A DNA stretch of 29,333 bases from Escherichia coli. GTDB taxonomy: Bacteria; Pseudomonadota; Gammaproteobacteria; Enterobacterales; Enterobacteriaceae. The stretch's first letter is position 1, and each line of letters begins with the position of its first letter. Shown here one piece after another: positions 2,610 through 4,601 of this stretch. Location of the stretch: the NCBI RefSeq assembly GCF_003334815.1, contig NZ_QOWO01000044.1, one strand, 5' to 3'. Below the pieces are notes generated by a model. That model was not told the origin of the DNA and did no database searches. It was given only the letters and a program-made list of their open reading frames with translations. The translations under genes and the position numbers were made by a program.

Positions 2610-3521
2610 TTATCCAACAAGACTTACCGGTTGAGGAAATTCAGATAGGATTTCTTGTTCCGCAAAACAGTTTTTAAATTGTCTACGGTAATCGCTGGGC
2701 GAACAACCGACATGGCGCAAAAACAGTTTGGCAAAGTGATCGACATTTTCATAACCCACACGCCAGGAGATCTCTGCCTGTGATAATTCAGTATTAGTGA
2801 GTGACCATTTTGCTTCCGTCATACGCCGTTGAATAACATAGTTAATAGGGGAAATACGATACTCTTTGGTAAATTCATGGCAAATATAACTGACGCTGGC
2901 ACGAAATTTTTTCGATAACTGTTCTAAAGTGATTTTTTCGCGATAATTATTATTCAGATAGAAAAGAATATCTTTTATCAGAACATCTTTTTTAATATAC
3001 CCCTGCTCCGAACGATAAGCATTTTTAAAATTTTCGTAGTAAAGAATGGCTAACGTATAGGCAAATGCATCCCATAACGAAGATGTTTGGCTATTTTTAC
3101 TTTGCGGCAAAATCACACTTAGCTCATTAAATAAGGTTTTTATGACTTCTTTTCCCTGCCCCGCGGCAATTACCGGACAAGAATGCGGTTGCAGTAGCTG
3201 ATTTTCCTCAGCCCCCTGAAACTGAAAGCCGTACAGCGCACAGGTACACGTCGTTGCCGGATCGTTAACGTCAGAGGCCACCGCATGCAGCCTGCCGCGT
3301 TCTATCACCACAATGTCATCCGCATGTGCGACATATAACGAAGAATCGATGGTAAACCTTGCAACCCCTTTCTTGACGTAAATCAACTCGGTTTCATTGT
3401 CATGAACGTGATGTCCGGACTCCCATTTTGGATCATCGCTAAATGCAAAACGTGAAAGCCGTGGCGTTTTACCGGCGACAAACAGCGTTTCACTGGCGTT
3501 ATCAAAACAGCGTTGATACAT
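2610..3521 (-). CDS. ydiP: AraC/XylS-family transcriptional regulator (303 aa)
   Basis: ORF track; C-terminal AraC-type HTH region (ITLEQLSKKFRASVSYICHEF...SPINYVIQRRMTEAKW...). Confidence 0.9.
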   Translation of the reverse strand: MYQRCFDNASETLFVAGKTPRLSRFAFSDDPKWESGHHVHDNETELIYVKKGVARFTIDSSLYVAHADDIVVIERGRLHAVASDVNDPATTCTCALYGFQFQGAEENQLLQPHSCPVIAAGQGKEVIKTLFNELSVILPQSKNSQTSSLWDAFAYTLAILYYENFKNAYRSEQGYIKKDVLIKDILFYLNNNYREKITLEQLSKKFRASVSYICHEFTKEYRISPINYVIQRRMTEAKWSLTNTELSQAEISWRVGYENVDHFAKLFLRHVGCSPSDYRRQFKNCFAEQEILSEFPQPVSLVG

Positions 3522-3618
3522 GACAACCTCCCTATTCCATGAGCAAGCAAAAACAATATATGCCGGATAAAATACGGCGTGTATTGCGGTTATACAACCG
3601 CGTTTAGCGAGAGCTAAA

Positions 3619-3721
3619 CAAGATTATTTACACTGAATGCAAGATTGTACGGTCATGGAATAACTATATTGCCGCAAATTGCACTTTTGTTTTAGCGATC
3701 GCATTTTTTTTGCAAGATTGT
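3619..3721. promoter_or_regulatory. Divergent ydiP / ydiQRST-fadK promoter region with three copies of a CAAGATT(G/A)T motif
   Basis: CAAGATTAT at 3619..3627, CAAGATTGT at 3640..3648 and 3713..3721; the last two sit inside identical 11-mers TGCAAGATTGT (3638..3648, 3711..3721). Confidence 0.3.
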
Positions 3722-3836
3722 TGGCAAGGAAAACAGCTTGCTCCGTCGAAAACCCCGCACCGCTATCGCACACTATTTTCAGGCCATTTTTACCTTCCAT
3801 CGGAGATGGTTCCGTATGCGACTCACAGGAGAAATC

Positions 3837-4601
3837 ATGAAAATAATAACCTGCTTTAAGCTGGTGCCTGAAGAACAGGACATTGTTGTCACTCCAGAAT
3901 ACACCCTGAATTTCGACAATGCCGACGCCAAAATCAGCCAGTTCGATCTCAATGCCATTGAAGCTGCAAGCCAGCTCGCAACAGATGACGATGAGATAGC
4001 CGCGCTGACCGTTGGCGGCTCATTGTTGCAGAACTCGAAAGTGCGCAAAGACGTGCTATCCCGCGGGCCGCACAGCCTGTATTTGGTGCAGGATGCGCAA
4101 CTTGAACATGCACTGCCTCTCGATACCGCAAAAGCGCTGGCGGCAGCAATTGAAAAGATCGGCTTCGATTTACTGATCTTTGGTGAAGGTTCCGGCGACC
4201 TTTATGCCCAGCAGGTTGGCTTGCTGGTCGGAGAAATTCTGCAACTTCCGGTGATTAATGCAGTGAGTGCTATTCAGCGTCAGGGCAATACACTGGTGAT
4301 TGAACGCACGCTTGAAGATGATGTTGAAGTTATTGAACTCTCTGTTCCAGCCGTGCTCTGCGTCACCTCCGATATTAACGTGCCACGCATTCCTTCGATG
4401 AAAGCCATTCTCGGCGCGGGTAAAAAACCGGTAAATCAGTGGCAGGCAAGTGATATTGACTGGAGCCAGAGCGCGCCACTTGCTGAACTGGTCGGCATTC
4501 GCGTACCGCCGCAAACAGAACGTAAGCACATCATTATCGATAACGATTCGCCGGAGGCCATTGCCGAGCTGGCGGAACATCTGAAGAAAGCCCTGAACTG
4601 A
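3837..4601 (+). CDS. ydiQ: Electron-transfer flavoprotein beta-subunit-like protein (EtfB/FixA family, 254 aa)
   Basis: ORF 3738..4601 trimmed to internal ATG 3837 (MKIITCFKLVPEEQD), preceded by AGGAGA at 3827..3832. EtfB-like sequence. Confidence 0.9.
   Translation: MKIITCFKLVPEEQDIVVTPEYTLNFDNADAKISQFDLNAIEAASQLATDDDEIAALTVGGSLLQNSKVRKDVLSRGPHSLYLVQDAQLEHALPLDTAKALAAAIEKIGFDLLIFGEGSGDLYAQQVGLLVGEILQLPVINAVSAIQRQGNTLVIERTLEDDVEVIELSVPAVLCVTSDINVPRIPSMKAILGAGKKPVNQWQASDIDWSQSAPLAELVGIRVPPQTERKHIIIDNDSPEAIAELAEHLKKALN

Follow-up and report, generated by a model that had tools for sequence, protein, structure and literature searches.

Introduction

Operators for dimers of the AraC/XylS family typically carry two or more asymmetric half-sites of about 15-17 bp, arranged head to tail with a 21-bp period (two helical turns). 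Each half-site has two boxes, one per helix-turn-helix of a monomer, and the half-site nearest the regulated promoter abuts or overlaps its -35 region. In the araC-araBAD control region, araO1 lies at the araC promoter and araI1-I2 at PBAD, and the AraC half-sites are spaced 21 bp apart. At the melAB promoter, the MelR sites 2 and 2' are positioned at -62.5 and -42.5. The half-sites of AraC have been formulated as TAGC-N7-TCCATA as well as TAGC-N7-ACCTGA (PMC4514859), the operator of MekR as CACC-N5-CTTCAA-N6-repeat (PMC4514859), and that of XylS as TGCA-N6-GGNTA-N6-TGCA-N6-GGNTA, with the proximal site overlapping the -35 (PMC4514859, PMC4225500).

The genes ydiP, ydiQRST, ydiF and ydiO lie within the poorly characterised portion of the E. 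coli genome. The ydiQRST-fadK cluster has been implicated in anaerobic β-oxidation of short-chain fatty acids (butyrate) in Salmonella, where its counterpart has been connected with the use of butyrate in the gut (PMC13170390), and a review reports no evidence that FadR or CRP regulates fadK (PMC9329746). YdiP, encoded divergently from this cluster, has received the new name CsiP and has been presented as a cold-shock regulator. In Salmonella, ydiP (STM1355) is listed among genes induced by indole, at 7.5- to 11-fold (PMC3405474).

By default, one would expect a local regulator to bind the divergent spacer next to its gene. We find that three repeats in the spacer between ydiP and ydiQ are, as judged from sequence comparison across genera, very probably a real and conserved operator with the usual AraC/XylS layout. 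We found no account of these repeats, no EMSA and no footprint in the literature searched, and the motif strings matched unrelated primers only; the operator is apparently undescribed. Clear half-sites would provide a precise handle on a poorly characterised regulator and operon, including the inducer and the control of the cluster by YdiP. The motif also conflicts with the published list of YdiP targets, and such a handle would serve to check the quite different cold-shock role, which was assigned from ChIP data without a ydiP/ydiQ site.

Three repeats in the ydiP/ydiQ spacer of E. coli

The window, by which we mean the whole stretch of 29,333 nucleotides that was analysed, is E. coli K-12-type sequence, with position x corresponding to NC_000913.3 1775780 + x. 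The gene ydiP (b1696) occupies 2610-3521 on the minus strand, with its ATG at 3521. By annotation and Pfam it encodes an AraC-family regulator (AraC_binding/cupin at 28-144, E 2.4e-10; HTH_18 at 202-281, E 1.6e-20; a Cupin_2 match as well), which is the presumed binder. The gene ydiQ, at 3837-4601 on the plus strand with its ATG at 3837, heads ydiQRST-fadK, which extends to 8897 and is the presumed regulated operon. The divergent intergenic region between the two ATGs, 3522-3836, has the length of 315 bp that the first-pass annotation gave it. The 551 bases around the repeats are 100% identical to those of laboratory E. coli strains, and at least 80% of this stretch was found in 5,357 out of 5,426 complete genomes of the species; in 4,886 of these the identity reaches 99% or above. 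An IS1A element splits the 551-bp query into two pieces in E. coli EC7518 (NZ_CP085183.1 2293202-2294529).

Sequence reading and pattern searches reproduced the three annotated 9-mers, all on the plus strand: CAAGATTAT at 3619, and CAAGATTGT at 3640 and 3713. The last two are embedded, as had been noted, in identical 11-mers (TGCAAGATTGT, 3638-3648 and 3711-3721). In their extended forms, site 1 (AAACAAGATTATTTACA, 3616-3632, core 3619-3627) has the cross-genus consensus AAAACAAGATTRTTTGY and scores 16.7 bits on a weight matrix (PWM), and site 2 (ATGCAAGATTGTACG, 3637-3651, core 3640-3648; consensus TGCAAGATWRTAYG, 20.2 bits) forms a tandem direct repeat with it. Site 3, together with a conserved run of eight T, covers 3704-3727 on the same strand (TTTTTTTTGCAAGATTGTTGGCAA, core 3713-3721; consensus TTTTTTTGCAAGATWGTTGGYAA, 21.8 bits). 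Written as a 14-mer, the half-site is TGCAAGATWGTTGG. The best score elsewhere in the window is 10.9 bits.

Taken by itself, the E. coli sequence is suggestive. The pattern CAAGATTRT matches the 29-kb window three times, exactly at sites 1-3 (0.63 expected; three matches reached in 6 of 100 shuffles). When the 315-bp region was put through 2000 dinucleotide shuffles, 35 of them gave an exact direct repeat of 11 nt or longer, 35 gave a triple 9-mer with one free position, and 3 gave both. The repeats are therefore only modestly unusual (~2% of shuffles) and not decisive, and since such repeats would be met fairly often by chance over ~25 spacers, E. coli alone cannot settle the matter. It is from these figures that the idea of a chance repeat without function draws its support: each feature turns up in some 1.75% of shuffles, and comparable repeats of one kind or the other are found in several further 315-bp tiles of the window. 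The comparison with other genera, described below, leaves that idea a negligible probability.

A 7-bp inverted repeat, GTTTAGC-GAGA-GCTAAAC, adjoins site 1 at 3602-3619 and is present only in Escherichia. We rejected it as a terminator-like hairpin: matches of this kind are about as frequent as chance predicts (1 found against 0.5 expected), and outside Escherichia the stem is not kept.

The repeats are conserved across genera

A scan with the YdiP protein, taking one genome per species, yielded 40 loci from five Escherichia lineages, many Citrobacter, Kosakonia, Serratia, Symbiopectobacterium, Brenneria, Dickeya, Prodigiosinella, six Yersinia and some metagenome bins. In all loci complete enough to show it, ydiQ is divergent from ydiP and ydiO-ydiF lies downstream of ydiP, with the order ydiF-ydiO-ydiP/ydiQ-ydiR kept throughout; in Salmonella, too, ydiP adjoins ydiQ and is divergent from it. 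From these loci 36 spacers (314-911 bp) were extracted and set to the orientation of the window, whose own spacer brought the number to 37. The Salmonella locus was obtained separately and left out of weight-matrix training.

All 37 spacers contain CAA[GA]AT[TC][AG]T-N12-CAA[GT]AT, that is, sites 1 and 2 on the same strand exactly 21 bp apart, and the 21-bp period was likewise found in 17 of 17 representatives. The most divergent locus, whose YdiP is 58% identical, retains the pair as TGCAAGATCAT...TGCAATATAAC. Site 3 with its extended context TTTTTTTGCAAGATWGTTGGYAA is present in 36 of the 37 spacers and in Salmonella, where the three sites lie at 85, 106 and 347 of a 462-bp spacer and no further match of at least 12 bits occurs in 6.9 kb.

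An alignment-free profile gives the same picture: when 8-mers of the E. coli spacer were sought in ten other genera, 8-9 of the ten shared them exactly on the three copies and at most 5 elsewhere. At a threshold of 13 bits the matrix finds 97 matches in the 17,952 bp of spacers and 8 in the 190,845 bp of flanking DNA; some of the counted spacers had served to train the matrix, so that only the flank rate is an independent figure. Adjacent spacer DNA diverges beyond alignment while the sites stay put. The comparison of orthologous regions named in the first-pass annotation thus came out in favour of the motif, the three copies keeping place and orientation across at least nine genera while the spacer diverges. 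Position, orientation and the 21-bp spacing are kept in 38 loci from at least ten genera, which excludes a chance repeat.

In the E. coli DNA scanned, the motif occurs only in the ydiP/ydiQ spacer. A matrix scan of MG1655 1770000-1790000 showed no motif upstream of ydiF-ydiO, and none was found at two loci (L053, L054) that encode 50%-identical YdiP paralogues in another gene context. These two loci, and a third that carries a paralogue of the ydiQ operon (L055, discussed below), also without the motif, agree with what a locus-specific operator would predict.

Five loci from Serratia, Symbiopectobacterium and Yersinia (L021, L022, L028, L031 and L040) have a matrix match of 13.7-14.4 bits (TGCAACATAATTGG / AGCAACATAATTTG) in the orientation of the operator sites at position 2682, ~180 nt into ydiP, and E. 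coli has no equivalent. These ydiP-internal matches may reflect coding-sequence conservation or a remote half-site.

The sites form two modules, each next to a predicted promoter

On the alignments, the three copies are two modules and not one array: sites 1 and 2 go with the ydiP side of the spacer, site 3 with the ydiQ side. The spacings of 21 and 73 bp reported in the first-pass annotation are both correct in E. coli; the first is invariant, whereas the second holds only in Kosakonia, Escherichia and the C. amalonaticus group. The distance from site 2 to site 3 is 250-251 bp in the C. freundii group and 327-354 bp in Serratia, Yersinia and Pectobacteriaceae. We considered phased DNA looping and rejected it: 73 bp corresponds to 6.95 helical turns and 250-251 bp to 23.9, but 327-354 bp corresponds to 31.1-33.7, which is non-integral, so the phase is inconsistent. 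Relative to Escherichia, the C. freundii group (L007-L020, L029) carries an AT-rich insertion of ~178 bp between sites 2 and 3, at ~140-320 of the spacer, and Serratia, Yersinia and Pectobacteriaceae carry ~255-280 extra bp between the same sites.

On the ydiP side, the alignment of block A contains a predicted -10 hexamer (TATAAC, 3589-3594, minus strand) within the conserved GGTTATACAAC (3588-3598). Read on the ydiP strand, this element is GTTGTATAAC in E. coli, GTGGTATATC in Yersinia and GTGATATACA in Serratia, and the gap from it to the core of site 1 is 22-24 nt in all genera. It is likely a -10 hexamer, in part of the extended type. Relative to the predicted ydiP promoter, PydiP, the core of site 1 would then be centred near -41 (about -45 to -37) and site 2 near -62, with the predicted start at about 3582 on the minus strand.

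On the ydiQ side, site 3 is followed by a conserved block at 3730-3752 on the plus strand (AAAACAGCTTGCTCCGTCGAAAA, consensus AAAACAnnTTnnCnnGTCG-W4), with no indels relative to site 3 in any genus from Escherichia to Yersinia. This block could be a degenerate promoter-proximal half-site, or a contact for another factor or RNA polymerase. Some 14 variable bases separate it from the conserved CGCACACTATTTT (3767-3779), with which TATCAATATAT is aligned in Yersinia and in Brenneria / Pectobacteriaceae, and this whole order, from site 3 to CGCACACTATTTT, is indel-free in all genera. The conserved spacing points to TATTTT (3774-3779, plus strand), within CGCACACTATTTT, as the predicted ydiQ -10, which would put the core of site 3 near -69 and the block at about -56 to -34 of the predicted PydiQ, whose start is predicted at about 3786 on the plus strand. 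A scan with the strict sigma-70 consensus returned no promoter, and neither PydiP nor PydiQ has a recognisable -35, as would fit activator-dependent promoters.

Other assignments within the spacer were tried and rejected. A fourth copy, 21 bp past site 3 or inverted, was PWM-negative in 17 of 17 representatives (mean -11.7 on the plus strand at +21); a weak inverted GCAAGCTGTT occurs in E. coli only, and the block at 3730-3752 is accordingly taken as a conserved element of another kind. Site 3 could be read as a sigma-70 -35 (TTGCAA) with a T-rich UP element, except that the place of the -10 is then taken by ACAGCT/CAGCTT in E. coli, and that site 1 lacks the TTG.

All three copies lie in ydiQ orientation, on the sense strand of ydiQ, in every genus. 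This would also be expected of an RNA-level motif repeated in a long ydiQ leader and bound by an RNA-binding protein or an sRNA. We regard that explanation as very improbable: the RNAalifold values for the two conserved blocks were 0.0 and -0.81 kcal/mol, indicating no conserved fold, Rfam gave no match, and sites 1 and 2 keep a fixed distance from the ydiP-side element and not from ydiQ. Moreover, the exact 21-nt period equals two turns of B-DNA and has no obvious meaning in RNA.

YdiP is the probable binder of the sites

The sites exist, keep their sequence, orientation and spacing, and are accompanied by a conserved gene of the AraC type. We consider it probable that sites 1-3 are half-sites of an operator for that adjacent AraC/XylS-family regulator, YdiP. 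Each half-site appears to comprise two boxes, an invariant CAAGAT and, about one helical turn on, T(T/G)G(Y)A, whose start lies 9-10 nt past the C; the second box is kept in sites 1 and 3 and is weaker in site 2 (TAYG). The half-sites are asymmetric and arranged head-to-tail, sites 1 and 2 being direct repeats in 37 of 37 regions and in Salmonella, with site 3 on the same strand. The first helix-turn-helix of YdiP (SVSYICHEFTKEY.ISPINYVI.RR) is nearly invariant across genera in which the protein as a whole is 58-70% identical, as conserved DNA specificity would require. The first-pass annotation had proposed an AraC-type operator for YdiP or another regulator, a proposal strengthened by the cross-genus conservation and by a 21-bp period like that of XylS and MekR. 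Within this reading, we infer the binding of YdiP, the promoter positions and the direction of regulation.

Conservation by itself does not name the protein, and the conserved operator could belong to a different transcription factor, such as a regulator encoded elsewhere. This we think unlikely. The motif is confined to the spacer within 49 kb of E. coli DNA and is rare in the flanks counted above (8 matches in ~190 kb), making a global regulator unlikely; ydiP adjoins the motif in every motif-bearing locus; and asymmetric half-sites in a 21-bp tandem are typical of AraC/XylS dimers. Nor does the spacer contain a good match to the consensus strings of CRP, FNR, FadR, ArcA, CytR or sigma-54. 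CytR operators consist of paired GTTGCATT/AATGCAAC octamers between tandem CRP sites. The best AATGCAAC-N2-GTTGCATT match in the spacer has 5-6 mismatches in 16 positions and the best CRP match 3 in 10; site 1 lacks TGCA, and a CytR reading leaves the invariant G-A-T unexplained, so that CytR was rejected.

A point in favour of another factor comes from the published ChIP data, in which the reported YdiP peaks lack the motif and neither dataset has a peak at ydiP/ydiQ. ChIP-exo of YdiP-8myc in glucose M9 gave five sites (sdhC, uxaB, secG, cspA and yihQ), with signal-to-noise ratios of 1.7-5.5 and none at ydiP/ydiQ (PMC8464067), and ChIP-seq of YdiP-FLAG3 at 15 °C gave 52 sites, in a table without ydiQ, ydiR or fadK (PMC9283627). 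The coordinates of the former study follow NC_000913.2 numbering, with an offset of +777 or about +1977 from NC_000913.3. After correction for the offset, the five peaks ±250 bp contained nothing like the motif, the best score being 6.5 bits; peaks and motif thus cannot both be the specific YdiP site. The peaks of both studies are weak and located at highly expressed genes, and both studies used a C-terminal tag, beside the DNA-binding domain, and no candidate inducer (PMC8464067, PMC9283627). The tag and the lack of an inducer may explain the missing ydiP/ydiQ peak, and we judge these datasets to be less diagnostic than the conserved footprint.

Comparison with described operators

The layout of the ydiP/ydiQ spacer appears to resemble the araC-araBAD control region most closely. 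Both consist of a divergent regulator/operon pair, in which the regulator combines a cupin (AraC_binding) with two helix-turn-helix motifs, and both have asymmetric direct-repeat half-sites with a tandem pair at the promoter of the regulator (a predicted one for ydiP), sites 1-2 taking the place of araO1. Site 3 would correspond to araI1-I2 at PBAD, where a strong half-site lies distally and an element of poor match comes after it and extends to the -35. The motif itself, however, is unrelated (CAAGAT...TKG versus TAGC-N7-TCCATA), and neither an araO2-like remote half-site nor a CRP site was found in the ydiP/ydiQ spacer. The distance between the modules is variable (73-354 bp), which leaves a phased repression loop unsupported.

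The published formulas for XylS and MekR both amount to a 21-bp period, equal to that of sites 1-2. The likeness to XylS at Pm of the TOL plasmid goes beyond these 21-bp direct repeats, because sites 2 and 3 start in TGCA and their second box contains GG (TGCAAGATTGTTGGCAA). The spacing of the boxes nevertheless differs, TGCA-N8-GGYAA at ydiP/ydiQ compared to TGCA-N6-GGNTA at Pm, and site 1 begins with AACA. The invariant positions at ydiP/ydiQ are CAAGAT, and YdiP is not an orthologue of XylS.

The geometry of MelR sites 2 and 2' is matched by sites 2 and 1 (about -62 and -41, reckoned from a predicted -10 only), and melAB likewise has no recognisable -35. The orientation and number of the sites differ between the two systems, and no CRP involvement was seen at ydiP/ydiQ. 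In sequence, the motif is unrelated to the ara, Pm and mel sites alike.

A search with the YdiQ protein for ydiQ genes without ydiP gave, among its best 120 matches, sequences whose identity was never below 72% and which came from the same genera; the sole informative extra locus was a cai/fix paralogue (L055), whose electron-transfer flavoprotein (ETF) product is ~78% identical to YdiQ. Like ydiP/ydiQ, this CaiF-dependent type of system has a paralogous ETF operon (fixABCX) divergent from a partner operon, and repeats in the spacer. The repeats differ, TTTCAATATTGGTGA in three copies and AACAATATTGAAA in two, with no CAAGAT and no adjacent AraC-type gene. They lie at 3029-3500, between a BCCT transporter gene and a fixA-like gene, and are probably the operator of the cai/fix-type system's own regulator.

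A model for control by YdiP

If confirmed, the mechanism would be the standard AraC/XylS arrangement. A YdiP dimer would occupy the tandem of sites 1 and 2 with its 21-bp period, just upstream of the predicted ydiP promoter. As these sites would overlap the -35 position of PydiP, they would mediate autoregulation. Site 3 would be the strong promoter-distal half-site from which ligand-bound YdiP activates ydiQRST-fadK, with the block at 3730-3752 extending to where the -35 of the predicted ydiQ promoter would be. In orientation, the repeats point away from the predicted PydiP and towards PydiQ, and the two modules could therefore not work identically.

A more elaborate scheme is possible, though we hold it to be rather doubtful. 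The primary regulon of YdiP might consist of ydiP and ydiQRST-fadK, governed by a three-half-site switch in which the lone site 3 is partnered by the non-cognate block: a dimer at site 3 would either contact this weak element (on) or loop to the ydiP-side tandem (off), as AraC does in its light switch. On this scheme, the targets published from ChIP would be secondary or artefactual.

Further features of the cluster

Several other sequence features were noted in and around the locus. A near-consensus FNR box, TTGACGTAAATCAA, lies at 3373-3386, within the ydiP coding sequence, and is the predicted site for the ydiP/ydiQ target in an FNR ChIP-chip study (PMC1802558). Synonymous changes remove this box in all other genera and even in E. 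whittamii, making it E. coli-specific. The 5' part of the ydiP coding sequence also contains a direct repeat, two copies of AAACAGCGTT 25 bp apart at 3480-3514, and a genomic SELEX study of FlhDC prints this stretch as the sequence of its class C peak 'ydiO > ydiP > ydiQ' (PMC9962212).

The proteins of the cluster differ in their conservation. Between E. coli and genera as far as Yersinia and Dickeya (L004-L040), YdiO is 92-96% and YdiF 88-93% identical, and the values in the same loci are 65-84% for YdiP, 74-85% for YdiQ and 63-76% for YdiR. The ydiFO half of the cluster would thus seem to be either under unusually strong constraint or recently transferred.

One contig, titled Martelella alba, an alphaproteobacterium (L036), carries a complete cluster of the enterobacterial type (ydiF-ydiO-ydiP/ydiQ-ydiR) with the same operator sites. 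Its YdiO shares 91% identity with that of E. coli and its ydiP is truncated at 240 codons, and the cluster suggests contamination or recent transfer.

Finally, the spacers of Brenneria, Prodigiosinella and Dickeya contain a small upstream ORF of 45-48 codons on the ydiQ strand, which is absent from E. coli. In spacer coordinates it spans 612-752 in L023, 764-901 in L027 and 747-893 in L024; the three begin MRQQKSSPFCLLPAIGICLN..., MNQQKVSPFPLLPAIGISLN... and MSQQPISPHYLLPASGIRLN..., and stop 8-18 nt before the ydiQ ATG.
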